Shown here in pieces: positions 7,670 to 53,368 of a DNA stretch of 61,435 bases. The notes below the pieces were generated by a model, which saw only the letters and a program-made list of their open reading frames with translations, had not been told where the DNA came from and made no database searches. Source of the stretch: Candidatus Yanofskybacteria bacterium (GTDB lineage: Bacteria; Patescibacteriota; Minisyncoccia; 2-02-FULL-40-12; IGHO2-01-FULL-4-A); NCBI GenBank assembly GCA_903897805.1, contig CAIUCV010000021.1:1-61435 (forward strand), read 5' to 3'. Numbering within the stretch: position 1 is the first letter of the stretch; every line of letters begins with the position of its first letter. The position numbers and the translations under genes were made by a program.

Positions 7670-8051
7670 GAAAAATAAAAATCCCGGGGGAGTGGGAACC
7701 ACAACTGCGGCCACTCTACCCGGGGGTGCTGATTTTCATCCGGGATCGCACCTTCATCCCGAATATACCTGACTATCGCATCGAAGCCCGCCAGGAAGAC
7801 TCCGATAAACTTTATACGAACTTTTTTGCCCTGAACTTGTCGAAGGGCTAGCCCTAATTTCTTACTTGTTCCGGCAACTAAGGTCGGACTGTGGGCGGGG
7901 TTCGTAATCTTGTGAAAAGAGCGGGCCGAGAGGAGAAGGGCGCCTCATCCGGTCAGGCCTAGCCACCACAGGCATAGCCAGCCCCTTACCTCGGATGTCC
8001 CTTTCCTCTCAGCCTGTATCCAGTATAGCATAGTGCTTATATGTTTGTCAA
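7670..8051 (-). ncRNA. Putative orphan structured ncRNA unit (family N copy 1)
   Basis: On the minus strand: TTGACA-N18-TATACT (8051-8022), then ~340 nt of hairpin-rich sequence with no ORF of 60 aa or more, ending in a GC hairpin plus TTTTTATTTTT. Confidence 0.55.
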
Positions 8052-8175
8052 GTGCTTTATAAGAAATCCGTAAAAACCCCTTATTTTAAGCCGTTTTTTT
8101 GGCAGTATTCTATAATGAATGAAGCGAGGCCCATCCCCATTTTCGCGACATCGGAGCCAAGTAACATATTCTGTA

Positions 8176-8362
8176 GCAACCCGCCTGATTTTTCTGACTC
8201 TATCTGCCGACTAGCAAATTGACGAGTTGAGCGTATATTGTTCCGTATGAAATATGCGGGTCGCGAAGCAGGAATGGATAACCGCATATTTCCAGGAACA
8301 ATAGCTCAACGAGGATAATTTGCAGAAAGGCATGATACCGGAAGAAAAATCAGGGGGGTTGC
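8176..8362. repeat. Long imperfect rod-like palindrome upstream of comEC
   Basis: GCAACCCGCCTGATTTTTCT ... AGAAAAATCAGGGGGGTTGC with nested arms (GTTGAGC/GCTCAAC, GAAATATGCGG/CCGCATATTTC). Confidence 0.75.
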
Positions 8363-8373
8363 GGAAAGTTTTA

Positions 8374-9930
8374 ATGCCAGACAAATCACGCATATTTTTT
8401 TATTCATTGTTAGCTTTTGCCGGAGGAATCTTCGCTGGTTCCTTTTTTGACATCCCCAAGACCATTGTTTTGGCCGCCGCCCTCATTTGCGTATTGTTAA
8501 TCGCGGTATTTTTCAGAAAGGGTTCTCGGCTGGTGAATTTTAAAATAACCTTTGCCTCCTTTTTGGTCATCTTCTTTTTACTGGGTGTCGCACGCTATAA
8601 CGCCGTTCATTCAAAACAGCTCACTCTGACAAAAATAGCCGAGGCCTCCGCCCAGTTGATTGACCCAGCCCAAAAACACCCGATTCAGGTCGCGCTTTAC
8701 GGTTATGTCAGTGGAGAGCCGGTAACGAAAGGCGACAAACAGCAGTTCGTTTTTTTTGCGAAAGAGACGGATGCTCTTTCCCGCAGAATTGAAATTAACG
8801 AACGAGTGCTTATCACCGCCCGCCCGTATCCTAAATATGAATACGGGCAAAATTTGAAAGTTTTCGGCGAAATAAAACTTCCGCAGAATTCCGAAGATTT
8901 TGATTATCAATCATATCTGGCAAAAGACGATATTTTTACCGTTAGTTATTACCCGGAGGTATCACCGGGCAATCTCAACCTTGGTCCTTACGAGAAAATT
9001 AAAATTGGTTTTTTTCGCGGCATATTCAGGGTAAAGAATGCTTTTGAAGCGTCAATCAGCCGTTCCGTCCATGAGCCGAATGCAGCTTTTATCAACGGTA
9101 TTTTGCTCGGTTCCCGCGCCGAAATCCCGACGGATGTTAAGAACGACTTCAGCCGCACAAGCACGACCCACATTTTGGCGATATCGGGCTATAACATTAC
9201 CATAATCGCCATGATAATTTCGTGGTTCTTTCTTTTCTTTTTCCGCCGGCCGATCGCTTTCTGGTTTTCCGTCGCGGGCATTGCCATTTTCGCGATTTTG
9301 ACCGGCGCCCAGGCATCAGTGGTCAGGGCGGCGATTATGGGCGTTTTGGTTTTGTTGGCCCAGCGGGAGGGGAGATTAAGCGATCCCCGCAACGCACTGA
9401 TATTCACCGGCGCGCTGATGGTTTTTCTTAGCCCGCGGATTTTGAGATATGATGTTGGTTTTCAGTTGTCATTTGCGGCGACCATCGGGCTGATTTATGT
9501 AGCGCCTCTTATAAAAAGATATTTTGAAAAACTGCCGAGCTTTTTCAGTTTCCGCGAGACATTTGTGATGACGCTTTCAGCCCAGTTTTTCGTCTTGCCT
9601 CTCTTGATATACTATTTCAAAAATCTTTCACTGGTTTCCTTGCCCGCGAATATTATTGTTTTGCCGATAATACCCTTTGCGATGCTGCTTGGCGCCCTGA
9701 CCGGCGTTGCCGGACTGATTTTGCCGTTTCTCGGCCGACTGGTCGGCTATTTCGCTTGGCTGGTTTCGGCGTTTGAACTCGGCGTAATAAAACTTTTTGC
9801 CAAACCCAGTTGGGCCGCCGTTTCCGTCCAATTCAATTGGTACGCTGTCATTTTGGCCTACGCGGCGATTATCGGGTTTTTAATTTGGCTGAGCCGGAGA
9901 AGTAAGAAGAAAGAAAACGTGGGGCATTGA
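8374..9930 (+). CDS. comEC: ComEC/Rec2 competence protein (OB-fold plus membrane competence domain, no MBL domain)
   Basis: HILAISGYNI, GAQASVVRAAIM and DVGFQLSFAAT. The start MPDKS at 8374 is probable. Confidence 0.93.
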   Translation: MPDKSRIFFYSLLAFAGGIFAGSFFDIPKTIVLAAALICVLLIAVFFRKGSRLVNFKITFASFLVIFFLLGVARYNAVHSKQLTLTKIAEASAQLIDPAQKHPIQVALYGYVSGEPVTKGDKQQFVFFAKETDALSRRIEINERVLITARPYPKYEYGQNLKVFGEIKLPQNSEDFDYQSYLAKDDIFTVSYYPEVSPGNLNLGPYEKIKIGFFRGIFRVKNAFEASISRSVHEPNAAFINGILLGSRAEIPTDVKNDFSRTSTTHILAISGYNITIIAMIISWFFLFFFRRPIAFWFSVAGIAIFAILTGAQASVVRAAIMGVLVLLAQREGRLSDPRNALIFTGALMVFLSPRILRYDVGFQLSFAATIGLIYVAPLIKRYFEKLPSFFSFRETFVMTLSAQFFVLPLLIYYFKNLSLVSLPANIIVLPIIPFAMLLGALTGVAGLILPFLGRLVGYFAWLVSAFELGVIKLFAKPSWAAVSVQFNWYAVILAYAAIIGFLIWLSRRSKKKENVGH

Positions 9931-9998
9931 CAGATGCCAAGTATTGCCCCATTATTAGTTCCAGTTGCTTTTACAGGCAAAATAATCAGGAGACGCAA

Positions 9999-10451
9999 AT
10001 GTTGTCACGAACGAGAAACCTTTTTGAATTAACCGAGGATGAAAAGCGAGAGCTGGCTGGATTTGACCAAAAGATAGGCGAGCTTCAACGACAGAAGGAA
10101 TTAAAGTTGCGGAAATTAGCCAGACAAAAAGGCATATCAGCTCTGAAGCTGGAAGACCTCGAATCGGAATGCGGCCAACCGTTTGTTGAAGAAAAAGAAC
10201 ACAGCATTTATCGACGGGCGATGGCAAGAGATAAAACCGATTCCCTTCGCTTTGAATCTGCCTATCTATGCGCCTCACGATATGAAGCCCCCTCTAGGAC
10301 TGGAAATAAAGACACCTGCGGTTGGGTCAAGGGCGAACCGAGAGAAGAGCGATATGATAGTATAGGACCGCTTTGCGGTTCGGCCGGAATAAGATTTTAC
10401 TGCAGAATTTGCGGCAAAATGGTGGGAGAGCTTCAGGAGCGCGTATCATAA
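9999..10451 (+). CDS. Hypothetical protein with coiled coil and Cys motifs (possible Zn binding)
   Basis: AGGAG RBS before ATG 9999. Contains C...CGW...CRICG. Confidence 0.6.
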   Translation: MLSRTRNLFELTEDEKRELAGFDQKIGELQRQKELKLRKLARQKGISALKLEDLESECGQPFVEEKEHSIYRRAMARDKTDSLRFESAYLCASRYEAPSRTGNKDTCGWVKGEPREERYDSIGPLCGSAGIRFYCRICGKMVGELQERVS

Positions 10452-10493
10452 ATTTAACCGAGGAAACTCGGTTTTTATCTTTTTGAGGCAGAC

Positions 10494-11063
10494 CTAATCG
10501 TTAATAAAATCGGCGAATTCTTTCCAGGATTTAATCCTTCCGAAGCGCGTGACATGAGGAAATAAATTGTGGGCATCAAAGAGTATTTTATTTTCAATAT
10601 TGACCAGTTTTTCAAGGACGCCGAGTTCGTCGTCAATGTAGTGAGTTATGCCTAATTTCCGGCCTATTTCGTTTTTGTCCTCCGGTTTTATGACAAAAAA
10701 AGCATTATTTTCGTTAAAAAACTTGGGCCACAACCCCTTGAATTTTAAAATATGAATGGCCCATTGCGGATCTCTTCGCCTTGATACCAGAAAGTACGGA
10801 TATTTATTTTTTAGCTTTGCAAGCACGTTCTTTGCCCCTCTCGTCAGAGGCGACAGAAGCGATATTTTGGGGTCGTAATATAAAATATTTTGCAATTGAT
10901 CATAAATTGGCTCGGGAATAATATGTTTAAGTGTTTCTGATTGCGTTTGCTCGGGCTTTAATTCCCAGCCAAATTTTTTAGCCAATCTAATCTTATTCAT
11001 TGTATGGTCCAAGATAACCCCATCCAGGTCAAAACCGATGATTTTGTTTTTATAATTAGCCAT
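10494..11063 (-). CDS. HAD-superfamily hydrolase (5'-nucleotidase-like)
   Basis: IGFDLDGVI motif I and YIDD motif IV. Confidence 0.85.
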   Translation of the reverse strand: MANYKNKIIGFDLDGVILDHTMNKIRLAKKFGWELKPEQTQSETLKHIIPEPIYDQLQNILYYDPKISLLSPLTRGAKNVLAKLKNKYPYFLVSRRRDPQWAIHILKFKGLWPKFFNENNAFFVIKPEDKNEIGRKLGITHYIDDELGVLEKLVNIENKILFDAHNLFPHVTRFGRIKSWKEFADFIND

Positions 11064-11152
11064 ATTTTCACAAGTCAGTCCAGATTTACGCTTGGTTGCG
11101 ATTCGTTTATAATAACTCCAAATCAGAACTTTTAAAACAAGATGGAGCCGCG

Positions 11153-11888
11153 ATGGAACAAGCAATTAACGAAAATGTTTTTGAACAAAAAGCGCAAACC
11201 ATTCTAGCCTATCTTATAAAGCCACTTGCGTTACGACGATGGTTTTCTCCCGAGGCCGTTTTTCTTGGAGTTTACGGGCTCGCCCTCGGCGGGCAAGACT
11301 ACGACCATTACCGAACTTGATAAATTTTTGCGCAGGCAGGGCTTTAGAGTATTAAGGCCCCAGGAAGGCGCCGAGGTAATTCGCCACATTGAACGAAATA
11401 CCCCTCTCTATAATATCAGGACTGGCATATACGCCCTGACTCAGCTTATAGATTTTAGCGCCGGTCATCCTTATGACGTGGTTATCTTTGACCGATGCAT
11501 TTTCGACGCTTATTGCTGGATGATGTATTGGGTTGAAAAGGGCAAATTAAGCTCAGAGGAGAAGGATATAATTCAAGCCTTTTTCTTATCGCGTTTCTGG
11601 GCGAATAAAATAGATGTGGCATATTTTATGATTTGCGAGCCAGAGGTGGCCGCAGAACGGGAATTGAGGATTGCCTTAAGCCAAAAACTTGGCGAAACGA
11701 CAAGTCCGCAATCTATTCGTACTCTCGTAGAGCGCTATAAACAGACCCACGAGACGCTTTCCAGAGATTATAAACAGTTATTTTTGGTTAATACAACCCA
11801 TATGAGCGAAGAGGAGATGGTTAAATATATTGCCACACAAACCCTTGATATACTTGAACAAAAATCAAGGAACGGGGGACGGGGCTAA
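11153..11888 (+). pseudogene. P-loop nucleotide (thymidylate-kinase-like) kinase with an apparent +1 frameshift near 11217
   Basis: EFTGSPSAGKTT and VIFDRC lie in frame 11226..11888. An RBS-preceded ATG at 11153 is in another frame, and removing one base near 11217 fuses the two. Confidence 0.65.
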
Positions 11889-11959
11889 TCGTCTCACGAA
11901 AAAACACGCCGCAATTAAGCGGCTTTTGTTTTGCCAAATTTTGTGTTATTAAAATTCTG

Positions 11960-12832
11960 ATGCTTTCCGCCTCTCAACCAAGAAAAATCTCAAAACTTGA
12001 ATGGTCAATCTTTGCCATTCTCGTCATCTCGGCCGTTTTAAGTTTTATCGCTATCCCGGCGCTGGCCGGCGACGGCTTGCTCTATGTTTGGTTTCTTGAT
12101 GTCGGGCAGGGAGACGCAATATTTATCCAGGCGCCAAATGGCAATCAGATTCTCATTGACGGCGGGCCGGATAGTAAGGTTTTGCAGGAGCTCGGGCGGA
12201 TTATGCCCTTTTTTGACAGTTCAATTGACGCAGTTGTGCTTACTCATCCTCACGCCGACCATTTAAGAGGCCTGATTGAAGTTTTGAAAAATTACAGCGT
12301 TGGCAAGGTGCTGGAAAACAAAATACCGTGCGATTCTCCGGAATGCCTGGAATGGGACAAGGTGGAGCAAAAATCCGAAATGGTGCAGGCGGAAGCCGGT
12401 CAGATTGTTGATTTGGGAGGCGGTGCGGAGCTCAAAGTTATTTATGCCCGCCAACCCGATGCCAGGGCCAATGCCGCCAAGAACGCCCACGATTATATGC
12501 TTGTAACCGAGCTTGAATATGGCAGCGAGTCATTGCTTTTAATGGGCGATGCCGAAAAAAATATTGAGCAGACCCTAACCACCAGCAGTAATTTGCGGGC
12601 GCAATTTCTCAAAATTGGCCATCATGGCAGTAAAACCTCAACTACCGCCCAGTTCTTGGATGCCGTACGGCCGGAGCTGGCCTTTATGGAGCTGGGAGCG
12701 CAGAACTCGTATGGTTTTCCACACCCCGATGTTGTAAAGCGTCTTGATGACTTGGGAATAAAATATTATCGTACGGATATAGATGGTACCGTTGAATTGA
12801 CGCTGGACGGTGAAAATTATAAAATCAAGTAA
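11960..12832 (+). CDS. Metallo-beta-lactamase-fold protein of the ComEC C-terminal type
   Basis: FLDVGQGDA, LIDGG, THPHADH, KIGHHGSKTS, YGFPH and YRTD..G. Confidence 0.92.
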   Translation: MLSASQPRKISKLEWSIFAILVISAVLSFIAIPALAGDGLLYVWFLDVGQGDAIFIQAPNGNQILIDGGPDSKVLQELGRIMPFFDSSIDAVVLTHPHADHLRGLIEVLKNYSVGKVLENKIPCDSPECLEWDKVEQKSEMVQAEAGQIVDLGGGAELKVIYARQPDARANAAKNAHDYMLVTELEYGSESLLLMGDAEKNIEQTLTTSSNLRAQFLKIGHHGSKTSTTAQFLDAVRPELAFMELGAQNSYGFPHPDVVKRLDDLGIKYYRTDIDGTVELTLDGENYKIK

Positions 12833-12842
12833 AACCAAAACC

Positions 12843-13346
12843 ATGAATTTGCAGAGGACATTAATTTTGTTGAAACCCGACGCCCTAGACAGGGGTATCA
12901 CAGGAGAGATAATCTCCAGATTTGAGCGTGTTGGCGCCAAGATCGTTGGCATGAAGATGCTTGTTTCCGAGAAAGATACCGCGATGAAACATTATAGAGA
13001 GGAATTGGCCGAGAGACGGGGAGAGGCGATAAGGCAAAGAATGATTGATATGCTGATTTCCGGTCCGATCGTTGCTTTGGTGCTTGAGGGGATAGAAATG
13101 GTTGAGGTCGCAAGAAAAATGGTGGGTGCGACCGAACCCAAGGTGGCTGCCCCGGGCACTATTAGGGGGGACTATACCCATGTTTCGTATGGCTACGCGG
13201 AGGATAAAAAAATCGGGATTTTTAATTTAATCCACGCTTCGGCCTCGCCCGAAGAAGGAGAACTAGAAATTAACATTTGGTTTAGACCGGAGGAGCTGGT
13301 TGAGCATAAACCGTCTTATACGAAATTTACTTTAAAAGAAGATTAA
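12843..13346 (+). CDS. ndk: Nucleoside diphosphate kinase
   Basis: RTLILLKPDA, PGTIRGDY and NLIHAS. Confidence 0.95.
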   Translation: MNLQRTLILLKPDALDRGITGEIISRFERVGAKIVGMKMLVSEKDTAMKHYREELAERRGEAIRQRMIDMLISGPIVALVLEGIEMVEVARKMVGATEPKVAAPGTIRGDYTHVSYGYAEDKKIGIFNLIHASASPEEGELEINIWFRPEELVEHKPSYTKFTLKED

Positions 13347-13406
13347 TTCACCCAGTCAAATCCCCAAAGGGGAACTCCAAAGGAGTTATTTGACGGGGTA
13401 AAAAAT

Positions 13407-13877
13407 ATGGAACAAACACTAGACCCTCGTCTGCACTTCGTGGTCGCCACGGCAATCATCGTAAAAGATGGCAAGTTTTTGATTGCCAAGCGGGCGCCGC
13501 ACGAGAAGGCATTTCCTAACAAGTGGACAGTGCCCGGCGGCAAGCTGGTTTCTCATGAGTACGGCAAGCTACCCTATAAGACCGACTATCCGCAATGGTA
13601 CAACGTTGTAGATTGGGTTTTAAAAAAAGAAGTGAGAGAGGAAGTGGGTTTGGAAATAGAAAAACCGAATTATCTTTGCGATTTGGTTTTCGTCCGGCCC
13701 GATGGTTTCCCGGTGGTCACGCTTTCTTATTGGGCCAAGCACAAATCAGGGGAAGTTCAGCTTTGCAAAGATTTGACCGAACACGCCTGGGTAACCTTGG
13801 AAGAAGCAAAAAATTACGATTTAATTGACGGAATTTGGGATGAGTTAAAACTTGTAGCCGAGGCGGAGAATATTTAA
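13407..13877 (+). CDS. NUDIX hydrolase
   Basis: WTVPGGK...LKKEVREEVGL Nudix box. Confidence 0.9.
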   Translation: MEQTLDPRLHFVVATAIIVKDGKFLIAKRAPHEKAFPNKWTVPGGKLVSHEYGKLPYKTDYPQWYNVVDWVLKKEVREEVGLEIEKPNYLCDLVFVRPDGFPVVTLSYWAKHKSGEVQLCKDLTEHAWVTLEEAKNYDLIDGIWDELKLVAEAENI

Positions 13878-13899
13878 AAGTTTTTGGTTTTTAGCCAAG

Positions 13900-14244
13900 G
13901 TGCTACACTGGAAACAGTTCTTTGGCCATAAGGATTTGAGGAGGCCGCCCGTGGAAAATATTGTGGGCATCGGCTGCCGCGTCCGTACCAGGTACTTTAT
14001 GGGTCAGGGCCTTGGCAATAAAAGGCGTTACGAGCCGATTGGCGAAGAAACTTATGAAATCGGGGGTTACATCGTCCCGCCAAATAGCCCGCCAAATAGA
14101 GTTTCCTATGACTCGTGGATTGGAAGAGCACTTATGGGCGCTCGTGTTGGCCAAACCGTAAAGGTCAGCATGGGCGGAAGCGTAGATGGGATTTCAGTCG
14201 ACTTCTTGCTTGAAATCCTTGAAATAATCCAGCCACAACAATAA
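13900..14244 (+). CDS. GreA/GreB C-terminal-domain-like protein
   Basis: VGIGCRV...YEIGG...RVSYDSWIGRALMGARVGQTV...EILEI. It lacks the N-terminal coiled coil. Confidence 0.7.
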   Translation: MLHWKQFFGHKDLRRPPVENIVGIGCRVRTRYFMGQGLGNKRRYEPIGEETYEIGGYIVPPNSPPNRVSYDSWIGRALMGARVGQTVKVSMGGSVDGISVDFLLEILEIIQPQQ

Positions 14245-14290
14245 AGACGTCCTCGCGGCGTCTTTGTTTGTTTAGTTTAATTTCAAAACT

Positions 14291-14764
14291 TTATAAATGA
14301 ATTATCGTCTTTAAAATTAAATTGCCCAGAAGTTTGCTGGCAGCAATAACTATTAACGCAACTACCAAATGCCAAACTACTTCTCGCAAAGGATTTGTTT
14401 TCTTACTTTTTGCGATTAAATAGCTTAAGATAGCGAGCAAAACCAAACCCCAGATGGAGGAAACAATAAGGGCGGCGTGCGAAGAAAATAATAAAACTAT
14501 TAAAACGAAAGTGAATGCAAGAAATAATCTTACTATAAAATTTCCATATGTAAATGAATTGATATCCTGTCTGGAAGCTCCTTCCGACTCTTTATATATA
14601 TGGATACCTAATGAGTCAGAGATATTATCCGCGATCGCAATAATCAAAAGACCGGTAATTATACCTGTTTTTGCGCCGTCTCCTTGGGTCAGTCCCGCAA
14701 TTAACCCCATGCTGGTGATAATCGCCGCCGTAGCGCCCATACTAAATTTATTTATGTTTACCAT
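14291..14764 (-). CDS. VIT1/CCC1-like membrane transporter
   Basis: FSMGATAAIITSMGLI...IAIADNISDSLGIHI, with several TM helices. Confidence 0.75.
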   Translation of the reverse strand: MVNINKFSMGATAAIITSMGLIAGLTQGDGAKTGIITGLLIIAIADNISDSLGIHIYKESEGASRQDINSFTYGNFIVRLFLAFTFVLIVLLFSSHAALIVSSIWGLVLLAILSYLIAKSKKTNPLREVVWHLVVALIVIAASKLLGNLILKTIIHL

Positions 14765-14979: not shown

Positions 14980-15050
14980 TCGGGGTACCCGGATTCGAAC
15001 CGAGATTAAATCCACCCCATGGACTCGTGCTACCGTTGCACTATACCCCG
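14980..15050 (-). tRNA. tRNA-Pro(GGG)
   Basis: The reverse complement folds as a cloverleaf with CGGGGTA/TACCCCG-A acceptor, anticodon loop ATGGGGT and T-loop TTCGAAT. Confidence 0.93.
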
Positions 15051-17426: not shown

Positions 17427-17640
17427 AAACCGAGGTATTGCCAATTTTTTCTTATGTTCTCTGCGCAGACAAATGTTATTCAAATTTTCTTATTTTCTGT
17501 GATAAAAAATCGTACCCCTTCCGTCCCTCGCTACGCTCGGGACTACGTCCCAATTTTTTATCAGAAGGAAAATATCAAAAATTTGAATACATTTGTAACT
17601 GCTCGTTCAGAAAAGAAAAAATTGGCAATACCTCGGTTTT
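17426..17640. repeat. Long palindromic element, family B copy 1
   Basis: Terminal IR AAAACCGAGGTATTGCCAATTTTTT. The 54-nt core 17504-17557 matches 52793-52846 at 51 of 54 positions. Confidence 0.88.
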
Positions 17641-17703
17641 AAAAAGGAAAAGCCCGCATTTCCACCGAAGTGTACTTTGCGGGCAGAGAGTGCCGCGCGC
17701 GGC

Positions 17704-17913
17704 CTAACTAGTGAGCTTGGCCACTGTGAAGCCGGCCGTGAGCAAGCCAGTGATGGCGAGAAGACCCAAGATCGTCGCCCATTTCTTTGCGGCTGGCAAG
17801 AGGGTCTTTTGTTCCTCCGGCCCGGCTTCGGCAAAAAGATAGAAGACCTTTCGAGCCTTTCTGGCCGCTAAGATCGTGGCCAGAAGAAGCGACATCGTGA
17901 TCCAAAACAGCAT
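17704..17913 (-). CDS. Small two-TM hypothetical protein lying antisense between rpsG and fusA
   Basis: AGGAGG RBS and a TTGACA-type promoter upstream on the minus strand. It has two hydrophobic segments. Confidence 0.6.
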   Translation of the reverse strand: MLFWITMSLLLATILAARKARKVFYLFAEAGPEEQKTLLPAAKKWATILGLLAITGLLTAGFTVAKLTS

Positions 17914-18075
17914 GGGGAATCCTCCTACTTTAATTATATCATATTTTATTAACCCTTGTCAAATTTAACCAAAAACCCTTGATTTCCCTAGCTTTTTAAC
18001 CGATTGACTTTTAGAAATTATTCGTGTCATTCGCATGCATTCGTAAATTGGCATCGCGGGTGAGCGTTAGCGAAT

Positions 18076-28778: not shown

Positions 28779-29156
28779 TGAAAAACAAAAAAAGGACCCC
28801 GGGGGAGATGGCAACGCCGTGCATGATGCACGCTCGCTGCGCGCCGTCTCCGGCCGGGGTATGCAGGTCCTCATCCTCTTCGTAACCTGGCCGTCTTTCA
28901 CAGCCGTCACAGTGACGGGGGACAAGACGGACTACGGGGAAATTCCGCCGGGCCGTTTCGAATCAGCCCCGACGTAGGCTAGGTTGCCGATCCCGCAATC
29001 GGCGTGGCGCCCGCCCCACGTGACACGTGATGGGGGCTGGACCCTACCTAGGAGGAGTTCCTTGCTGGAAACGATGGGTTGTTATCACTTCCACCAAGTA
29101 ACCCCTCCTATTCCTAACCAAATTCAAGTGTAGCAAAATGGTCTAGGCATTGTCAA
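28779..29156 (-). ncRNA. Putative orphan structured ncRNA unit (family N copy 2)
   Basis: On the minus strand: TTGACA-N18-TACACT (29156-29127), then ~340 nt of GC-rich hairpins ending GGACC...GGTCC-TTTTTTTGTTTTT. Confidence 0.55.
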
Positions 29157-29392
29157 GCCCCTAAGCTCAAACTATCAAAAACCATTGATTTTGCTGGTAA
29201 TTTTGCTGGATTTTTAAAAGTAAAAACCCCTCCCCGTTGATCCTTTCAGCTTCTATGCCTTGCGGTGCCTTGCGGCTCCGCGTAGCTCCACTTACTCGGG
29301 CGAGGAGGGGGTACTGCTGCGCTGGATACGGCCACCCAGAAACTACTCCGCATCCTCCTATAGGTTATCAAAGCCGCTCATACTTTGTCAAT

Positions 29393-30670
29393 ATGTCAGA
29401 AACCCACAAAAAGTTAGCGAGAGTATTTCGTACCAAGCCGGAAGTGCTTTTGGATTTGGAGAGAAAAATGGAAAAACTGACCGGTAAAAGCGGAGTGATG
29501 GAAAAAATAGTTGAAGAAAATGAAACCTTGATCGGGCAAACGCTTAAAGAGCTAGGTTTGCAGGAAAACAATCAAAGCGCCAAAGACGTCCATAATGTCT
29601 TGATCGGGTACATCAAGAATATAGATGAGCGTTTGTATGATTTTCTGGATAAACCAGATTTGTCCAAAATGTCAGGCAAATGCTGGAAGCTTTGCGAGAC
29701 AGCGCTGGCCCTTACTAAACCTAGTCCCGGCTTTTTTATAAAAAAAGAGAAGGCCGTTGAGATGCTTGAAAAATTTCCGCCGCAAAGCATGCTTGACTTT
29801 TTCGGCTGCAAAACCGCGGCCGAGCTGGTTGAGAAAAAAGGTTTATCGTCGGTTTTTAGCGCTCTGCGTTTTACCCAAAACACGGAATGGATGCATAAGT
29901 TTTTTGACGAAGCGTATAATGACCTCACTGCCGATGATTTTGAAGAACGTGAAGTTGAGTTGAAAGTTTTAGAGCCGGAATGGCTGGACGCGGCCGGGAA
30001 ATTTTTGGAGAAAAAATATCATAACCTTAGCCACCTCAAAGAGCTTGGCGTCATCTTCATAATCCCCATACAAATTGACACGCCAGGCGAGACCCTCCGC
30101 ATGTTCACGCTGCTCTTACACTATCTGAACGAAGTACCGTTTTATTCGGGGTTGTTCAAGAAATTTTCAAAAGAGCAGGATTTTGCCGGTAAAGTAAAAT
30201 CCCTGCTCCGCGGAGATGTGCCGGAGGATAAGCTGCCCGATTCGGAAAACATTGTTCTCAGGATCGTGCAAAGATATCTTGCCAAGGATGACCCAAATGA
30301 CTTTCGCTTGATGGAACCCCACATTAATCCCGAGGCGGAACATTGGTATAAAGCCGAAGGGGATTTGGCTGGGATTTCAAATATGCCCTCCTTCGCCGAG
30401 GTTTCGGACGGGCGAGCTTTTGCCTCTTGGCAAAAGCTCGATTTTGTCGGTGGTTTCTTCCCCAATGGCTTGACTGGAGTCGGCGACGAGGAATTGGTGA
30501 GTTTTGATTTGATAGACCTAACGATGTCGCTTGCCAAAAAGGGTGAAATTAAATACCTTTATCATCAGCAAGAAGCCCTCTGGAATAAGATTTTTATTGA
30601 ATATCTCGGCCGTGATAAACTTAATGAGTTGATAGAGGAAAATATTATAGATGGGTTTATAAAATTGTAG
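29393..30670 (+). CDS. Conserved hypothetical protein
   Basis: Long ORF. The start MSETHKK at 29393 is probable, and it contains HNLSHLKELG and LLHYLNE motifs. Confidence 0.8.
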   Translation: MSETHKKLARVFRTKPEVLLDLERKMEKLTGKSGVMEKIVEENETLIGQTLKELGLQENNQSAKDVHNVLIGYIKNIDERLYDFLDKPDLSKMSGKCWKLCETALALTKPSPGFFIKKEKAVEMLEKFPPQSMLDFFGCKTAAELVEKKGLSSVFSALRFTQNTEWMHKFFDEAYNDLTADDFEEREVELKVLEPEWLDAAGKFLEKKYHNLSHLKELGVIFIIPIQIDTPGETLRMFTLLLHYLNEVPFYSGLFKKFSKEQDFAGKVKSLLRGDVPEDKLPDSENIVLRIVQRYLAKDDPNDFRLMEPHINPEAEHWYKAEGDLAGISNMPSFAEVSDGRAFASWQKLDFVGGFFPNGLTGVGDEELVSFDLIDLTMSLAKKGEIKYLYHQQEALWNKIFIEYLGRDKLNELIEENIIDGFIKL

Positions 30671-38822: not shown

Positions 38823-38935
38823 GATTTCATTGTAGCAGAAACTTGAGAGAAAGCCACCTATTAACAACTTGACAATGCCCGAAAAAATCCCATACTAAAG
38901 TTGAGTTGTTTAAAATATAGAGAGGGGGGATAATT

Positions 38936-39469
38936 ATGAGCTGGGCCGAGGATGCCAAATATAGGCAGGAAGTTTTTGATTTAATTTTGTTTATTGCTTC
39001 GGAAGAGGGGATGAAGCCGATACCGAGCGGCGAGACAGAAGTTTTGCTTGAAATGGCCACGGCTGTCAGCGAATATCTAGTGGGCGATACCAAGGGAATG
39101 CCGGGGCCCTATGATCTTATCTTGGGTCTTGATGATAGATGGACCGGGTGGGTTGACCAAAAAATAGAAGAAGTGTTACGGCAAAATAGCAAACACCTTA
39201 ACCCGGCATTAGTAGAAGCGATAAACGATTTGTTAAAGATAGAATGGCATCATGACCACGGCGATAGTTGGTGGGAAAGCGGAGTTAAGGGGCAATTGAT
39301 GTTTCGGCAGAAAGGATTTAGGGGAACCTTTTGTCTTACTGTGCTGGATGCCCAAGCAGCTCGCGAAAATCTGGAGAAACTGGATGCGGATACGGTAGAA
39401 CACTGCAAACAAATTGGTATCCTAATGAGAAAATATATCGCTAGGGACTTGAGCAAGGCCGCCAACTAG
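38936..39469 (+). CDS. Hypothetical protein
   Basis: 177 aa ORF with a purine-rich RBS and an upstream TTGACA...CATACT. Confidence 0.65.
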   Translation: MSWAEDAKYRQEVFDLILFIASEEGMKPIPSGETEVLLEMATAVSEYLVGDTKGMPGPYDLILGLDDRWTGWVDQKIEEVLRQNSKHLNPALVEAINDLLKIEWHHDHGDSWWESGVKGQLMFRQKGFRGTFCLTVLDAQAARENLEKLDADTVEHCKQIGILMRKYIARDLSKAAN

Positions 39470-39525
39470 CACAACGGGCCAAACCCCGTTTTTTGTTTTT
39501 ATGACGGGTCATGCGCGGGCGAGCG

Positions 39526-45011: not shown

Positions 45012-46323
45012 AATTTTGGGCTTCCCGATGCAACTTTCTATAATATCCAATTGCGAACCTATGCGCCTCGGCATCTATTTGCAGAATGAGATTCCTGACT
45101 ACCGGCGGCAGTTTTTTTATTTTGATGGTGGCTTTTCTGGTTGTTGATAATATATGATCGCCGACATGTTTTTCGTTTTTGGTCAGAGCAATAATCGGAA
45201 TATTTAATTTGCGATTCTGATTTTTTTTGAAAATTGAAAATTGAAAATTGAAAATTGCTGAACGCGCAGCGTTCAGCTGTCCCTTGCCGCCATCTATTAA
45301 TATCAAATCGGGATATCGCCACTCGGGATGGTTGAATCGGCGCGTTAAAACCTCTTTTAACATGGCAACGTCATTTGATTTACCGGCAATCCTTATCTTG
45401 AATTTGCGGTATTCATTTTTATCCGGCCGGCCGTCAATAAAAACCACCATTGCGCTGGTGGCGAATTCGCCCTGTATATTGGAAACGTCATAACCCTCAA
45501 TACGCCTTGGCAGGGTGGACAGGTTGAGCGTCTTTTTTAAAGCATCAAGGCCGCGAGTGCCCTCTTTGTTTTTTAATTCGAGCTTGCGGATGATTTTAGA
45601 ATTTTCAAAAACGCTTTTAATCTTTTCCAACTGGTCACGCAACCCGATAGCCCTCTCAAAATCTTTTTTCTTAGCCGCTGAGGCCATATCTTTTTCCAGT
45701 TTTTTGATTAGCGATGTTTTGCGGCCGTTTAGCATTTCTTCAATTGCCACAATGTTCTTCTTGTACGAGTTTATTTCTTTGGCGCTTGCCTCTTTTTTAA
45801 GGCAGCAAAAGCCGGAGCAATTGCCGATGTGATAATTCAGGCAATAATTATTATGTTTTTGTTTGCAGGTGCAGTAGGGGAATATCCTGCGGAGCAACTT
45901 CAGGGTTACGCGCAGAGCCGTTCCGTCGGTAAACGGGCCGATAAAACTAGGGTATAGGGTATGGGGTTTAGGGTGTGAGGGTTGATGAGTAACAATCAGT
46001 TTTGGAAAATCTTCTTTCGTGAAGCCGATATAGAAATACTGCTTGTCATCGCGAAGCATTATATTAAACGGCGGCCGACACTTTTTAATTAATTGCGATT
46101 CCAGTATCAGGGCCTCTATCTCCGAACCTGTTTCTTGCCAATCAATGCTCTTGGCTGTCTCCAGCATTTTCTGAAGGCGGGGGTTGCCCAGATTTTTGTT
46201 GAAATACGAATTAAGGCGATTTTTCAGATTAGCCGCTTTGCCGATATACAAAACCCGCCGATTTTTATCTCGGAAGAAGTAAACCCCGGAATTTTTCGGA
46301 ATTTTTTTGACGTTTCTAATCAT
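45010..46323 (-). CDS. uvrC: UvrC-like excinuclease (GIY-YIG, UVR and RNase H-like domains; no HhH tail)
   Basis: GVYFF..LYIGKA.NLKNRLNSY, RIEGYDVSN, PDLILIDGGKGQ and EAHRFAI. Confidence 0.9.
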   Translation of the reverse strand: MIRNVKKIPKNSGVYFFRDKNRRVLYIGKAANLKNRLNSYFNKNLGNPRLQKMLETAKSIDWQETGSEIEALILESQLIKKCRPPFNIMLRDDKQYFYIGFTKEDFPKLIVTHQPSHPKPHTLYPSFIGPFTDGTALRVTLKLLRRIFPYCTCKQKHNNYCLNYHIGNCSGFCCLKKEASAKEINSYKKNIVAIEEMLNGRKTSLIKKLEKDMASAAKKKDFERAIGLRDQLEKIKSVFENSKIIRKLELKNKEGTRGLDALKKTLNLSTLPRRIEGYDVSNIQGEFATSAMVVFIDGRPDKNEYRKFKIRIAGKSNDVAMLKEVLTRRFNHPEWRYPDLILIDGGKGQLNAARSAIFNFQFSIFKKNQNRKLNIPIIALTKNEKHVGDHILSTTRKATIKIKKLPPVVRNLILQIDAEAHRFAIGYYRKLHREAQN

Positions 46324-46383
46324 GGGCCGACATTGATTTTAGGTTAATATTATGCCATAGTTTCTGCATAATTTCCAGCGAAA

Positions 46384-47373
46384 ATGTATTGGAGAAACAA
46401 TGTCCTAGCCACTCTTGCCTATTATGATGTTTTTGATTTTCCGCTGAAGGAGGAAGAGGTCTTCAAATTCCTCTTTAATTTTGAGCATCTTTCAGCATCC
46501 GGGGACGGACGAGCGCCGGATCTCGGCGAGATAAAAGCCGAGCTGGAAACATTGAAAAGCAATGGCGCCGTTAATTTTTACGACGGCTTTTATTTTTTGT
46601 TTGACCGCGATTATCTTATACCATTGCGATTGAGGCGCGAGAAAATAGCGAATAAGAAGTGGAAAAAAATTTACCGTGCAGTTTGGTGGCTAAAATTTTT
46701 GCCGTATGTAAAAGTTGTTTTTGCATCCGGTTCCCTAGCGATGAGCAACGCGGAAGAACTGGGGGATTTGGACATTTTAGTTGTCGTGAAGCACGGCCGT
46801 ATATGGTTATCGCGCCTGCTTATCTCGGGCCTATTATCACTAATCGGAATCCGTCGCAGATATAACCAAAAAATCGCGCCGGATAAGATCTGCCTTAATC
46901 ACTATATCACTAATAAATCCCTGCTGATCCCTTACAAGAGCATCTATACCGCCCAGACGTATATCAATCTCAAGCCGGTTTTTGTTTCCGACCCGCAGAT
47001 TATTGCCGAGTTTTACAAAGCCAATTCCTGGCTTGCCAATTTCGTTTTAAATTTTAATATTTCTTCTCGCCGGCACGAAGGAAAAAAGATTTTGGGGCGT
47101 AATTTTTTAGCCAAAATTAAATCAACGGCCTGGGAGATGATTTTGAATTCCAAATTAGGCGATTGGCTGGAGGACTGGGCGAAACGGTGGCAGATAAAAA
47201 GAATTGAGAAGCATAAAAAACAAGATCCGCCGGGCGGGCGGGTAATTTATACTGACGAGCAGTTAGAATTTCATCCAGGCTCGGTGGAGAAAGAAATAAT
47301 AGAAAAATATAATCAGCGCCTGATTGCTCTGGGCCTGGACGAATTTGCCGTGGAAAAAAAATCAGAGACTTGA
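46384..47373 (+). CDS. Nucleotidyltransferase-domain hypothetical protein
   Basis: LPYVKVVFASGSLAM.N.EELGDLDILVV, the GS...DxD signature. Confidence 0.75.
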   Translation: MYWRNNVLATLAYYDVFDFPLKEEEVFKFLFNFEHLSASGDGRAPDLGEIKAELETLKSNGAVNFYDGFYFLFDRDYLIPLRLRREKIANKKWKKIYRAVWWLKFLPYVKVVFASGSLAMSNAEELGDLDILVVVKHGRIWLSRLLISGLLSLIGIRRRYNQKIAPDKICLNHYITNKSLLIPYKSIYTAQTYINLKPVFVSDPQIIAEFYKANSWLANFVLNFNISSRRHEGKKILGRNFLAKIKSTAWEMILNSKLGDWLEDWAKRWQIKRIEKHKKQDPPGGRVIYTDEQLEFHPGSVEKEIIEKYNQRLIALGLDEFAVEKKSET

Positions 47374-47405
47374 CACCCTTTTTTATTTGAGTAATATGGG
47401 GGTAG

Positions 47406-47432
47406 CTGGCACTCTGGGGTCGGAAGTGCTAA
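47406..47432 (+). promoter_or_regulatory. CIRCE element (HrcA operator) upstream of groES
   Basis: CTGGCACTC-N9-AAGTGCTAA against the consensus TTAGCACTC-N9-GAGTGCTAA, with TTGACA at 47370. Confidence 0.8.
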
Positions 47433-47511
47433 TATCTGATGTTAGGTGTTGGATTTTAGGTGTTAGATGGTTTCTAAAACCTAGAAATCAAAACCTAAAA
47501 ACTAAAGAAAT

Positions 47512-49432
<1,921 letters not shown>

Positions 49433-49545
49433 AAAAGATAATCAATCACAAAAGCCCCGCAGGGGGCTTTTGTGATTAGAAAGAGCGCTTAACCTTGACT
49501 TTGACGAGACATGTCTAGTAAAATAAATCCAGACCTTTTCAAAAA

Positions 49546-50061
49546 TTGGGGAGGAATCAAATGTCGCCAATATCGCCTTTTTGTGGTCTAAATAGTTGGG
49601 ATGTGCAAGTACCTGATTACAACGAAAAATGTCCAATCTGCGGAAGCGTCCTTGAGGATGTATGGGGAACCATAGGCGGTTTTCCCGGCCATGAGCATGT
49701 TCATCCCTCATCGGTTGTGGGGTATAGGTGTAATAAGTGCATTCGCTATTTCCCGCTCGGAGAATTCCTGATGTTGAAATTGGAAAAAGAAAAAAAGCGC
49801 GAAGAAGCGCATTCCGATTTCGCAAAAAATTATTGGCAGGGCGTCCGCGCTATTTTCAAAAATCCTTATCTATATCTTATTGTAGTCGGGTTCATGTTGA
49901 TTAGCCGCAACTTTTGGGTAGGGATCTTAGCCGGGGTTGTTATTGTTCTCTTGATGCCGCTTCTGGCGAAATGTCTTGAGATAGTTTTCACACCGCTTGG
50001 CAGATTGGTCAGGAAAATCCTGCCCTCCGATAAATCGCCGGATAATCCTAAAACCCCATAA
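49546..50061 (+). CDS. Zn-ribbon plus TM hypothetical protein
   Basis: CPICG...CNKC followed by two TM helices. The start is uncertain (ATG 49561 follows GGGAGG). Confidence 0.6.
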   Translation: MGRNQMSPISPFCGLNSWDVQVPDYNEKCPICGSVLEDVWGTIGGFPGHEHVHPSSVVGYRCNKCIRYFPLGEFLMLKLEKEKKREEAHSDFAKNYWQGVRAIFKNPYLYLIVVGFMLISRNFWVGILAGVVIVLLMPLLAKCLEIVFTPLGRLVRKILPSDKSPDNPKTP

Positions 50062-50145
50062 GGGGTTTTTCTTTTATTTTGCCTTGACAAACCTTCGTCT
50101 TAGGATTAAAATAACGGAAGCTGTTTTGTTACAAGGAGATAACCA

Positions 50146-50334
50146 ATGCCAGGTACCGCCAGCGATTCCCAAGAAAAAAGACCCTGCCTCGTTTCCCTCC
50201 CCGTTCCCTGCTTCGATCCTTCTGAGGATTGCGAAATAGGTCGCACGGAAATATTTGAATCATTGCCGCCTGACATGCGGGAGGCGATACTGGAAGCCAA
50301 CATGGAAAATTATTTGACGAATGGCGGCTATTGA
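50146..50334 (+). CDS. Small hypothetical protein
   Basis: AAGGAG RBS and an upstream TTGACA, 62 aa. Confidence 0.4.
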   Translation: MPGTASDSQEKRPCLVSLPVPCFDPSEDCEIGRTEIFESLPPDMREAILEANMENYLTNGGY

Positions 50335-50478
50335 ATTCTGTTTCCACCCCCATCTCACTGGGGGTTTATTGTGGGCTTGTGATTGATGGACAATCCTTGA
50401 TGTGTTAAAATTAATCCAATAATTAACCTAAAAAACTACCAATTTTCTTCATAAAATAGGTGTTTTTTGAATAAATAT

Positions 50479-51036
50479 ATGCCAATTGTTTTAATTGTCA
50501 TTCTGGCGATGGCCGTTGTTTTGGTATTGTGGGTTGCAGGGTCATTCAATTCTCTGGTGCGGTCGCGAAACCGTGTAAAGGAATCCTGGTCGGATATTGA
50601 TGTGCAGTTGAAAAGACGGCACGACCTGATACCAAATCTGGTTGAGACCGTGAAGGGCTATGCCGCTCACGAGAAGGATGTTTTTGAAAGAGTGATAAAA
50701 GCACGGTCGGCGGCGATGGGAGCAAAAACAGTAGGGGAAAAAGGTGAAGCCGAAAATATACTTTCCGGTGCGTTGAAAAATCTATTCGCGCTGGCCGAGG
50801 CATATCCGACTCTGCGGGCATCGGAGAATTTTTCAAAGCTTCAGGATGAATTGACCGACACCGAGGACAAAATCCAAGCCGCGAGGAGATTTTATAATTC
50901 AAATGTTCTCGTTCTCAATACCAAAGTTGAACAATTCCCGACGAATGTCGTAGCTTCAGCGTTCGGTTTTAAGAAAGAAGCGTTTTTCGAACTTAGTTTG
51001 GCAGAAGAAAAAGAGCCCGTGAAGGTTAAGTTCTAA
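50479..51036 (+). CDS. lemA: LemA family protein
   Basis: [28 protein letters not shown] and EAYP.L. Confidence 0.96.
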
Positions 51037-51052
51037 TTTTGGCCGACTGATT

Positions 51053-52702
51053 ATGGTGAAAACAAAATACATCTTTGTTGCTGGCGGAGTAATGTCTGGC
51101 GTAGGCAAGGGTGTGGCGACAGCGTCAATCGGCCGTATTCTCAAAGAATACGGCTATTCTGTAACTGCGGTTAAAATAGATCCCTACATAAATGTAGATG
51201 CCGGCACGATGAATCCGATTGAGCACGGAGAGGTTTTTGTGACGGAAGACGGACTTGAATGCGATCAGGATATAGGCAATTATGAAAGGTTTCTAGATTG
51301 TAACATTTTGAAAAGCAACTATATGACCACGGGTTCGGTTTATCAGGCGGTGATCCAACGCGAGCGAAATCTTGAATACGGCGGCCGCTGCGTTGAGGTT
51401 GTGCCGGATATCCCAAATGAAGTCATAAGCCGCATCAAAAGCGCCGGCAAAATCAATAAAGCCGATTTCGTGCTGGTGGAGATCGGCGGCACGGTAGGGG
51501 AATACCAGAATGTGATTTTTCTTGAGGCGGCGAGAATGCTGAAACTTGCCGAGCCGGAAAACGTGATGTTCGTTATGGTGAGTTATTTGCCGGTGCCGAA
51601 TATGATTGGCGAGATGAAAACTAAACCGACCCAGTATGCTGTCAGGACGCTGAATGCCGCCGGTATCCAGCCAGACATGATTATTGCCAGATCTTCCGTG
51701 CCGTTGGACGGTTCCCGCAAGAGAAAAATATCCGTTTTTTGCAATGTTGCCGAAAAAGACGTCGTTTCCGCACCGGACGTCGCTACGATTTATGAGATTC
51801 CGATTAATTTTGAAAAAGATAAGCTTGGCCGGAGAATTCTGGCGCATTTCGGATTTAGGATCAGAAAAAAAGATTTTAGAAGATGGAATGCTTTGGTTAA
51901 AAAAGCGCGTGACGGAGATTTAAAGACCGTAAAAATCGGTATTGTGGGTAAGTATTTTACAAGCGGCAATTTTGTGCTTGCGGATTCGTACATCTCGGTA
52001 ATTGAAGCGGTTAAGCACGCTGCTTGGGCTTGCAACCGGAAACCGGTGATTACCTGGCTTGATGCCGAAGAATACGAAAGAAATTCAGCCGCCCTTTTAG
52101 GGTTGAAGAAGTTTAACGGCATAATTGTGCCTGGCGGTTTTGGTTCGCGCGGCATTGAAGGCAAAATGAAGGTTATTGGATTTGTCCGTAAAAATAATAT
52201 CCCGTTTCTCGGCCTTTGCTACGGTTTACAGCTCGCTGTGATAGAGTTTTCCAGAAATGCCTGCGGGCTTAAGAATGCCCATACGACGGAAGTGCGCTAC
52301 GATACGCCCCATCCTGTGATTTGCACGATGCAGGAACAGCTGGCGAATATTATCAATAAAAATATGGGCGGGACCATGCGGCTTGGCGGATATGTTTGTG
52401 AATTAAAAGAGGGTTCATTGGCCAGGAAACTTTATGGTTCTAATTTGATTTCCGAACGCCACCGCCACCGCTACGAGGTCAATAACAAATACTTACCCGA
52501 TCTTGAAAAACGCGGTTTACTGGTGTCGGGCGTTAACCCAAATAAAAACCTGGTTGAAATCATTGAACTGCCGAAACATAAATTTTTTATGGCGACCCAA
52601 TTCCACCCCGAACTTAAATCGCGGCCCCTGAACCCGCACCCGATCTTTAAGGGGTTTATCGCGGCTGCAGCTGGGTTTGGCGGAAGAGAAGGAGCCGGTT
52701 AG
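51053..52702 (+). CDS. pyrG: CTP synthase
   Basis: GGVMSGVGKG, KIDPYINVDAGTMNP, GLCYGLQ, ERHRHRYE and QFHPE. Confidence 0.98.
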   Translation: MVKTKYIFVAGGVMSGVGKGVATASIGRILKEYGYSVTAVKIDPYINVDAGTMNPIEHGEVFVTEDGLECDQDIGNYERFLDCNILKSNYMTTGSVYQAVIQRERNLEYGGRCVEVVPDIPNEVISRIKSAGKINKADFVLVEIGGTVGEYQNVIFLEAARMLKLAEPENVMFVMVSYLPVPNMIGEMKTKPTQYAVRTLNAAGIQPDMIIARSSVPLDGSRKRKISVFCNVAEKDVVSAPDVATIYEIPINFEKDKLGRRILAHFGFRIRKKDFRRWNALVKKARDGDLKTVKIGIVGKYFTSGNFVLADSYISVIEAVKHAAWACNRKPVITWLDAEEYERNSAALLGLKKFNGIIVPGGFGSRGIEGKMKVIGFVRKNNIPFLGLCYGLQLAVIEFSRNACGLKNAHTTEVRYDTPHPVICTMQEQLANIINKNMGGTMRLGGYVCELKEGSLARKLYGSNLISERHRHRYEVNNKYLPDLEKRGLLVSGVNPNKNLVEIIELPKHKFFMATQFHPELKSRPLNPHPIFKGFIAAAAGFGGREGAG

Positions 52703-52723
52703 GATTAGTTTTTAAGAAGCTTT

Positions 52724-52922
52724 GCCAATCTCTGATTTCCTTTCAGCATTTCGCAGGCAAATAATATTCTGATTTTCTCATTTTTCTGGATGAAAAAATC
52801 GTACCCCTTCCGTCCCTCGACAAGCTCGGGACTACGTCCCAATTTTGTTCATCAGCGAAAAATTTCGAAAATCATCATTTATTTGCACTGCTCTATTTGA
52901 ATGACGGAAATCAGAAATTGGC
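52724..52922. repeat. Long palindromic element, family B copy 2
   Basis: Terminal arms GCCAATCTCTGATTTCC/GGAAATCAGAAATTGGC. The core 52793-52846 is near-identical to 17504-17557. Confidence 0.88.
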
Positions 52923-52937
52923 TCCGCTACGTAAAAT

Positions 52938-53303
52938 TAAAAATAAAAAAGCCGGGGTTACGTCACAACGTCCCGGCTACGAGCTGCAAAGATCCCCGCC
53001 TTTACTGCGCGAGGCCCACTAGAGAGGCCACCTAAGTGGACTGTCTACTTGGGAGTCATGTCCCGGGCTGCCGTCGCAGTCCTGACTCATCCATGCAACC
53101 TGGCCATGATTGCGTATATAAAACGGTATAATTAGTAAAGAGCCGGCCGGAGGAGGAGTGGGGTAAGGTGGGCATGAGCCGAATCCCCGCCCGCATCCGA
53201 AGGAAAGGAGCACGTTCTGGCCTGCAGTTCCTCGCGATGGTCGAGCCCCCAGTTCCTCCTCTAGCCTGTTTTAAGTATAGCATAATCGGCTAGGCATTGT
53301 CAA
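52938..53303 (-). ncRNA. Putative orphan structured ncRNA unit (family N copy 3)
   Basis: On the minus strand: TTGACA-N18-TATACT (53303-53274), a 5' stem similar to copy 1, and an end of AGCCGGG...CCCGGCT-TTTTTATTTTT. Confidence 0.55.
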
Positions 53304-53368
53304 GCCCTCGGTTGAAAATTGCCAAAAACCCTTGATTTTGCAAGGATTTTGAGGTATTTTGAGAAAAT

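Follow-up and report, generated by a model that had tools for sequence, protein, structure and literature searches.

What are three dispersed, promoter-driven units without a credible open reading frame (ORF) doing between the housekeeping genes of a bacterium with a genome of about 0.62 Mb? The units lie on contig CAIUCV010000021.1 of the Candidatus Yanofskybacteria bacterium assembly GCA_903897805.1; nucleotides (nt) 1 to 61,435 of this contig are called the window here, and all positions refer to it. A sequence-only reading of the window had described the units, copies 1, 2, and 3, as a paralogous family of independently transcribed, medium-sized structured RNAs. Comparison with related genomes changes that picture in one essential respect, as the paralogous part of the three units is their expression chassis and not the RNA body. 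They are best read as three separate accessory small-RNA genes, each of which would have been inserted antisense between housekeeping genes of this Yanofskybacteria-like (Patescibacteria) genome.

The outer anatomy was found as it had been described. Each unit runs on the minus strand from a promoter to a terminator (approximately 345, 333, and 326 nt for copies 1, 2, and 3) in a gap between two plus-strand genes, namely, a gene for a hypothetical protein of 200 amino acids (aa) and comEC for copy 1, pfkB and a 425-477-aa gene for copy 2, and pyrG and htpX for copy 3. In the promoters, TTGACA is separated from TATACT or TACACT by an 18-nt spacer with TGC at its end; the pattern TTGACA-N15-TGN-TAYACT has exactly three matches in the window, all on the minus strand, and none in 100 shuffles. 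The 18 promoter bases reported to be common to copies 2 and 3 are indeed identical (CTAGGCATTGTCAAGCCC at 29143-29160 and 53290-53307) and did not arise in shuffles. A purine-rich 5' arm that pairs with a downstream pyrimidine arm was reproduced by the RNA folds of all three units: GGCUGAGAGGAAAGGG with CCCUUCUCCUCUCGGCC in copy 1, UAGGAGGGGUU with AACUCCUCCUA within GGUUAGG/CCUAGCC in copy 2, and GGCU.AGAGGAGG with CCUCCUCC.GGCC in copy 3. All three end in a CCGG/CCCGGG hairpin followed by a U tract. The ORFs, all without a Pfam match, are short or start inside the promoter; the longest begin inside the -10 box or read past the terminator. The folding z-scores against shuffles are -2.86, -4.54, and -1.96 for copies 1, 2, and 3, respectively. 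The parts of the three units are as follows.

8052-8095, minus strand: A/T-rich UP-like element of copy 1, AAAATAAGGGGTTTTTA (read from the sequence; putative function)
8022-8051, minus strand: promoter of copy 1, TTGACA, 18-nt spacer ending in TGC, TATACT (pattern match)
7924-8014, minus strand: 5' hairpin domain P1 of copy 1, closed by GGCU.../...GGCC, with an interior that varies between relatives (fold and comparison)
7811-7922, minus strand: linker GCUCUUU (7916-7922) and family A core of copy 1 (alignment, covariance model)
7672-7810, minus strand: 3' module and intrinsic terminator of copy 1, CCCGGG...CCCGGG and then a U run (fold, BLAST)
29127-29156, minus strand: promoter of copy 2, TTGACAATGCCTAGACCATTTTGCTACACT (pattern match)
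28788-29121, minus strand: predicted transcript of copy 2, approximately 333 nt, called family C (fold, comparison with the metagenomic homologue L164)
53274-53303, minus strand: promoter of copy 3, TTGACAATGCCTAGCCGATTATGCTATACT (pattern match)
53137-53266, minus strand: 5' hairpin P1 (53145-53266) and linker GCUCUUU (53137-53143) of copy 3 (fold)
52942-53136, minus strand: orphan body and terminator of copy 3 (fold, BLAST)

With a promoter of its own, an intrinsic terminator, an intergenic position, and no conserved ORF, each unit has the features of a stand-alone small RNA (sRNA) gene. The units are not placed as riboswitches or leaders are, for each terminator faces the 3' end of an opposite-strand gene and no same-strand gene lies downstream. 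The sequence-only reading had not recognized the RNAs, and no Rfam family was matched by any copy: Rfam 15 at gathering thresholds returned only three tRNAs over the whole window, a search at E <= 10 over each of the three regions gave chance-level matches only, and a scan of the loci of six relatives gave only tRNA-like matches.

The part of the earlier description that did not hold is a body alignable across the copies. In a three-way MAFFT alignment, conservation is limited to the promoter, the first ~15 transcribed bases, and the terminator tail. When each copy was compared with the whole genome by BLAST, the other copies appeared only as pieces of promoter or terminator size, the bodies being single-copy, and an all-against-all BLAST of 19 units from the genome itself and related genomes joined copy 1 to family A only, copy 2 to L164 only, and copy 3 to nothing. 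The search of the genome and its relatives has thus supplied homologues for copies 1 and 2 and none for copy 3. A single paralogous RNA family of ~340 nt with a common architecture (5' arm, CAGGT...GGATGA block, terminator) would account for the shared promoter, the similar lengths, and the 5' helix common to copies 1 and 3, as well as for the block itself, which is present in the sequence as GGCCAGGTT-N7-GGATGAG at 28870-28892 in copy 2 and GGCCAGGTT-N4-GGATGAG at about 53086-53105 in copy 3. GGATG also occurs six times in the three units against ~1.2 expected. The block is, however, not kept in L164 or in the relatives of copy 1 and was therefore not counted as a shared element; the GGAUGA of copy 1 itself sits in a stem that covaries to GGCUAA in genome G041. 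Of the 16 units of relatives that were tested for GGATG, 15 show no enrichment, and plain GGA equals the dinucleotide-shuffle expectation in all 19 units. A single family is largely refuted by the missing common body and is considered quite improbable; what stands of it is that the units are independent and non-coding and that two of them have homologues with compensatory changes.

The shared chassis consists of an UP-like element, the promoter, a 5' hairpin, a linker in copies 1 and 3, and a terminator. Promoters of the general type number only seven in the whole 622-kb assembly, five of them on this contig. The related pattern TTGACAA-N14-TGMTAYAMT occurs 35 times in 16 of the 26 genomes of the taxonomic family (reversed control, zero); visual inspection of 32 of these 35 loci assigned 14 to non-coding units of the present type and the remainder to protein genes or unclear transcripts. 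The spacer ATGCCTAG is conserved between copies 2 and 3, and when metagenome contigs were searched for the 30-nt ATGCCTAG promoter, five loci were found, whose units have bodies of three different kinds. Relatives of the UP-like element AAAATAAGGGGTTTTTA are also found upstream of copies 2 and 3, of a further promoter at 17962, and of the relatives' units. A long 5' hairpin with the closing pair GGCU/AGCC begins ~5-7 nt past the predicted start site. The 5' domain is closed by a helix (G)GCU...AGC(C) in copy 1 and in nine of 13 folded segments, the remaining four being either wrongly delimited by the motif or differently folded; the stem sequences vary from unit to unit, and C-N-GCUCUUU comes after the helix, the GCUCUUU linker being found in copies 1 and 3. 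A strong intrinsic terminator completes the chassis.

The 5' module is not confined to these RNAs. Its start motif, TATAMT-N4-AYANGCTRR, was found 27 times in 20 of the 105 genomes of the order (seven control matches) and heads mRNA leaders in other families of the order; therefore, the module is a general leader rather than the signature of an RNA family. In two relatives, the 5' hairpin contains tRNA-like structures by the Rfam tRNA model (L138:338-407, minus strand, 38.6 bits, without U33; L147:1553-1607, plus strand, 24.1 bits, which is below threshold) with an extended acceptor stem, and this tRNA-like module is absent from the three copies of the window. The 16S promoter is of a different type, and the RNase P RNA and tmRNA genes lie on other contigs without the 5' module.

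The body of copy 1 is the best conserved. In five relatives, a minus-strand unit lies downstream of pfkB; its promoter is of the same type and is followed by a 5' hairpin, GCUCUUU, and a core of ~110 nt that aligns with 7811-7922 of the window. This family A core consists of the helices CGAACC/GGUUCG and GCCCC/GGGGC, two hairpins, and the 13-nt loop CAAGUAAGnnAUU (7856-7868), which is the most conserved unpaired element of the family. A covariance model (model R1) has exactly one match per genome in nine of the 105 genomes of the order, distributed over both genomes of the same genus, six of seven in genus g6, and one of two in genus g3, and the core was also found on one metagenomic contig. 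In the 10-sequence alignment, 90.7% of the cells pair, compared with 22-48% in slid controls; helix 4 has double changes at four of its five pairs, the covariation score was reached by none of 500 shuffles, and the pair table contains ~14 G-U cells, as expected if the RNA is made from the minus strand. Genome G017 lacks one hairpin of the core, a block of 25 nt and hence no whole number of triplets. The 3' third of copy 1 is common to the family A unit of one g6 genome (75% identity over 97 nt) and not to the same-genus homologue. Among ~185,000 species genomes, the core pattern was found in three records of Patescibacteria (under the titles Paceibacteria, Patescibacteria group, and Yanofskybacteria), and a further, likely chance match lies in Lysobacterales. 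The core with its exposed loop would probably bind a protein or another RNA. One candidate partner was rejected: a perfect 15-nt complement of the copy 1 loop lies at C17:10508-10522 of the same genome, inside a thyX-like gene (PF02511), but the complement is not kept in the same-genus genome, and the gene itself was not found in four of five relatives searched, all five with family A, so it is not a conserved target.

The body of copy 2, family C, has an outer helix GGUUAGG/CCUAGCC, variable hairpins, and a terminator. BLAST against the 104 other genomes of the order found no match, and its syntenic metagenomic homologue L164 came from the ATGCCTAG promoter scan. The two have in common a nearly invariant block of ~67 nt (about 29039-29105) and further blocks between the variable hairpins, and seven of the 82 predicted pairs have compensatory double changes. 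As a separate observation on this locus, the ORF listed from 29237 (TTG) is probably over-extended, as a same-genus alignment puts its start at an ATG near 29393; therefore, the gap that holds copy 2 is ~655 nt.

Copy 3 differs from both, as its site has homologues and its body has none. At the same site, L161 and the same-genus L139 have flanks 82-89% identical to 52671-52945 and 53299-53877 and a unit with a similar promoter, 5' helix, and terminator but a different body. That body is made up of a part called module D and the family B core (GGGGUGAAAUUCCCC ... CUGGACGGCCCCGCC), which is also found in four other genomes and is absent from the assembly studied here. The copy 3 terminator resembles that of the site-orthologous unit in the sister species, and the orphan body of copy 3 would have replaced the family B RNA found there. 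One DNA contig of another study is identical to the window across 52464-53411. Family B is in its own right a second conserved core, without an Rfam match. It reads GGGGUGAAAUUCCCC ... ACUGGACGGYCCCGCC ... UAUGGCGCA hairpin and follows the same promoter and 5' module; the five genomes that have it (L134, L138, L139/L161, L158, and L199) belong to genera g1, g3, and g6. In the same-genus L139, furthermore, lemA is directly followed by a repeat like R2 (described below) and the RNA unit, with no pyrG between, and pyrG was not found in that genome (85% complete).

The sites themselves would be exchangeable slots. Five cassettes of this promoter type are found in the window, three RNA units and two small-protein cassettes, all antisense to both neighbors, and multi-copy foldback repeats flank three of the five. 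The additional features are as follows.

17714-17962, minus strand: sister cassette with a 66-aa hydrophobic ORF (17714-17911), the same promoter type, and an UP-like element, between rpsG and fusA
38869-39500, plus strand: sister cassette composed of the promoter TTGACAATGCC...CATACT, an orphan ORF of 177 aa, and a terminator (Pfam on the neighbors)
8183-8319, no strand assigned: foldback repeat R1, which separates comEC from the promoter region of copy 1 (four copies in the genome, the other three 88-99% identical)
52710-52936, no strand assigned: foldback repeat R2 with 31-nt inverted arms, between pyrG and the copy 3 terminator (repeat search)

The first sister cassette belongs to a ~650-nt insert (17427-18075) that splits rpsG from fusA; besides the 66-aa ORF cassette, the insert has a terminator and one R2 copy. 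The same-genus genome has kept the cassette (L154). R2 has at least seven copies of 74-88% identity, including one at 17464-17582 and others on five further contigs. The genes on either side of the second sister cassette encode a class I tRNA synthetase of the Trp/Tyr type (Pfam tRNA-synt_1b) and RNase J, and the 177-aa ORF of this cassette has no Pfam match; in the metagenomic relatives L163 and L165, its place is taken by a non-coding RNA unit with module D. The hyp200-comEC junction (the site of copy 1), the pfkB junction, and the pyrG junction are tight in most relatives, and where they are occupied, the contents differ. For instance, pyrG and htpX are ~18 nt apart in five close relatives; pfkB and its neighbor are adjacent in the same-genus genome and most others, five relatives having their family A units there; and the hyp200-comEC gap of G017 holds a different RNA of ~125 nt.

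Such an arrangement could also be explained by a role in cis, in which the inserts are insulators that provide a bidirectional terminator, a new promoter region, and antisense transcription blocking read-through, the RNA sequence being irrelevant. The antisense orientation of all five cassettes, the A/T-rich divergent regions between the unit promoters and the next genes, and the terminators that abut the 3' ends of the upstream genes agree with this explanation, which leaves the conserved, covarying RNA cores unexplained; moreover, most relatives do without an insert at these junctions. It is judged distinctly unlikely. A separate, tentative, and on the whole unlikely reading is that these Yanofskybacteria-like genomes have fixed expression slots between housekeeping genes, composed of an UP element, a promoter with a palindromic GCCTAGGC-type spacer (possibly an operator), a stabilizer hairpin with linker, and a terminator, into which unrelated RNAs or orphan genes are swapped by recombination at the ends. 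If this were true, it would be a cassette system for RNA genes, with co-regulated, abundant RNAs of fast turnover in a minimal genome. As for the operator, GCCTAGGC-like spacers occur at no other promoter of the same genome, so a regulon is not demonstrable from it.

The sister cassettes also bear on the proposal that each unit is a small-protein mRNA or a transcript like those of type I toxins, whose 5' arm, resembling a Shine-Dalgarno (SD) sequence, is sequestered. This proposal is very improbable. The purine-rich, SD-like 5' arms do pair with CCUCC-like arms, and one sister cassette does encode a hydrophobic peptide of 66 aa; against this, no ORF of the units starts at a proper SD distance or has a Pfam match, the only SD-led ORF of copy 2 (17 codons) is broken by a 1-nt indel in L164, and the family A hairpin lost in G017 comprises 25 nt, which is not a multiple of three.

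It would be extremely improbable, too, that one unit is a diverged housekeeping RNA, either 6S or signal recognition particle (SRP) RNA. In its favor, the genome has no match to RF00013, RF00169, or RF01854, but no Rfam signal appeared over the three regions even at E <= 10, the units are accessory and lineage-restricted (family A being lost in G022), the folds are multi-branched with no 6S-like rod and central bubble, and the Ffh M domain was detected in none of 26 genomes, hence no SRP partner. A side observation on the SRP itself is that RF00169 has matches in none of six genomes and RF01854 in none of five (the genome studied and relatives). The M domain (PF02978, SRP_SPB) was searched for in 26 genomes of the order, 22 of high quality, with controls found in 14 of 14, and the genome studied has neither a PF00448 SRP-GTPase domain nor a G1+DTAGR signature in its six-frame translation. 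The undetected pathway could reflect a real loss or extreme divergence, and no paper on a missing SRP in Parcubacteria or Patescibacteria appeared in the excerpts that a literature search returned.

The reading favored here, held to be moderately probable as a whole, is that the units encode small accessory RNAs that are transcribed strongly and protected at their ends, and that the RNA bodies bind proteins or other RNAs in trans. In the mechanism put together from sequence comparison, the A/T-rich UP-like element and the near-consensus extended -10 promoter would drive high transcription, and the 5'-proximal hairpin and the 3' terminator hairpin would shield the RNA ends from decay. A stabilizing role is suggested for the hairpin because the 5'-end-dependent nuclease RNase J is encoded in the window (Pfam) and an RNase III signature is present in the genome, taken together with general knowledge of RNase J and 5' stem-loops. 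The body would be the cargo, different in each unit: the family A core, the copy 2 fold, or the orphan body of copy 3. Between relatives, bodies would be swapped or lost as the promoter and terminator stay, probably through recombination between the shared ends.

Several observations weigh against this reading. No RNA-seq run was found to contain this DNA. The chassis is used elsewhere, as the promoter type also drives orphan protein genes, and in one genome of the order (L193) the 5' hairpin with GCUCUUUCACAAGGAGG directly precedes a start codon; therefore, the chassis is not RNA-specific, and some bodies could be decayed genes. The stabilizing role is modeled on RNase J and 5' stem-loops in Bacillus, the outer helices 1 and 2 of family A are nearly invariant and hence uninformative on structure, and the sole target test that was possible, the thyX-like complement, failed on conservation. 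Family A is dispensable, with no match in G022 (92% complete), which has only a promoter, ~60 nt, and a terminator at the site syntenic to copy 1. Copy 3 is the most doubtful, and it may be non-functional: its fold barely beats shuffles (z = -1.96, with four of 100 shuffles folding equally well), BLAST of its body against 40 relatives found no homologue but only terminator-sized matches, and in a contig of an organism of ~92% identity, 52668 is followed directly by 53407, so that 738 nt are left out and pyrG-htpX lacks the insert, although this single contig with a short side of 25 nt is weak evidence.

The same observations support the main rival, above all for copy 3, according to which the units are what is left of decaying cassettes specific to a strain, once small-protein genes or else accumulated structured repeats, with a strong promoter and terminator kept and functionless RNAs. 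An orphan copy 3 that is absent from closer relatives, the 60-nt stub of G022, the multi-copy repeats R1 and R2 within the islands, and the orphan ORFs and the L193 mRNA leader behind the same promoter or 5' module would all be expected of debris. What debris does not explain is a family A core that each of its genomes, from three genera, has exactly once and that shows compensatory changes, a ~67-nt block of copy 2 that is almost unchanged as its hairpins vary in a compensatory way, and bodies that are single-copy, unlike repeats. For the three units together, this explanation is considered unlikely, and the reading as accessory small RNAs is retained.

Ultra-small Patescibacteria genomes are thought to hold few genes beyond the essential ones, yet this 61-kb window has five strongly promoted antisense cassettes, one of them between rpsG and fusA. 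Family A and the copy 2 family add at least two conserved, structured RNAs outside Rfam, and no description of these RNAs was found in the excerpts returned by a full-text literature search on structured RNA in Patescibacteria or the candidate phyla radiation. If expressed, they would probably be among the most abundant non-ribosomal RNAs of the cell and would be candidates for lineage-specific regulation or host interaction. Furthermore, the reuse of a chassis and the replacement of bodies at fixed sites suggest a route for the birth, testing, and loss of RNA and small genes in reduced genomes.

Compared with known systems, the islands resemble repetitive extragenic palindromic (REP)/REPIN repeats and the Rickettsia palindromic elements in that the foldbacks R1 and R2 adjoin the units and the islands are patchworks. 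R1 and R2 are themselves multi-copy as such repeats are, whereas the RNA units are single-copy, with promoters, terminators, and covarying stems. Protein-sponge RNAs of the CsrB/RsmZ type likewise come as several RNAs that align poorly, are similar in size, and have a strong promoter and terminator, and GGAUG motifs are present in the three units; a CsrA sponge was nevertheless rejected, as GGA is not enriched, GGAUG is not kept in relatives, and a crude motif scan of the six-frame translation of the genome found no CsrA-like motif. At the 5' ends of Gram-positive transcripts, stabilizing stem-loops keep RNase J from degrading the RNA in its 5'-end-dependent manner, and Escherichia coli has a comparable hairpin at the 5' end of ompA. 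The present units are like them in having a stable hairpin a few nucleotides from the predicted 5' end in a window that encodes RNase J, and differ in the hairpin length of 90-230 nt, the hypervariable interiors, the tRNA-like inserts of two relatives, and the conserved GCUCUUU linker that comes after.

A further likeness is to the stand-alone sRNA genes of bacteria, which have a sigma-70 promoter and an intrinsic terminator and are in some cases island-encoded or lineage-specific. The units agree with them in being intergenic, non-coding, complete from promoter to terminator, variable between strains, and stably folded. At ~330-345 nt, they are longer than most sRNAs, and the same crude scan of the genome found no Hfq-like motif either. 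They differ, moreover, in that one chassis serves several unrelated bodies as well as small-protein genes and in that the inserts lie antisense in conserved strings of housekeeping genes. The stand-alone sRNA gene is thus a known kind of element, and what is new here is a shared, conserved chassis with unrelated bodies that are replaced at fixed sites.

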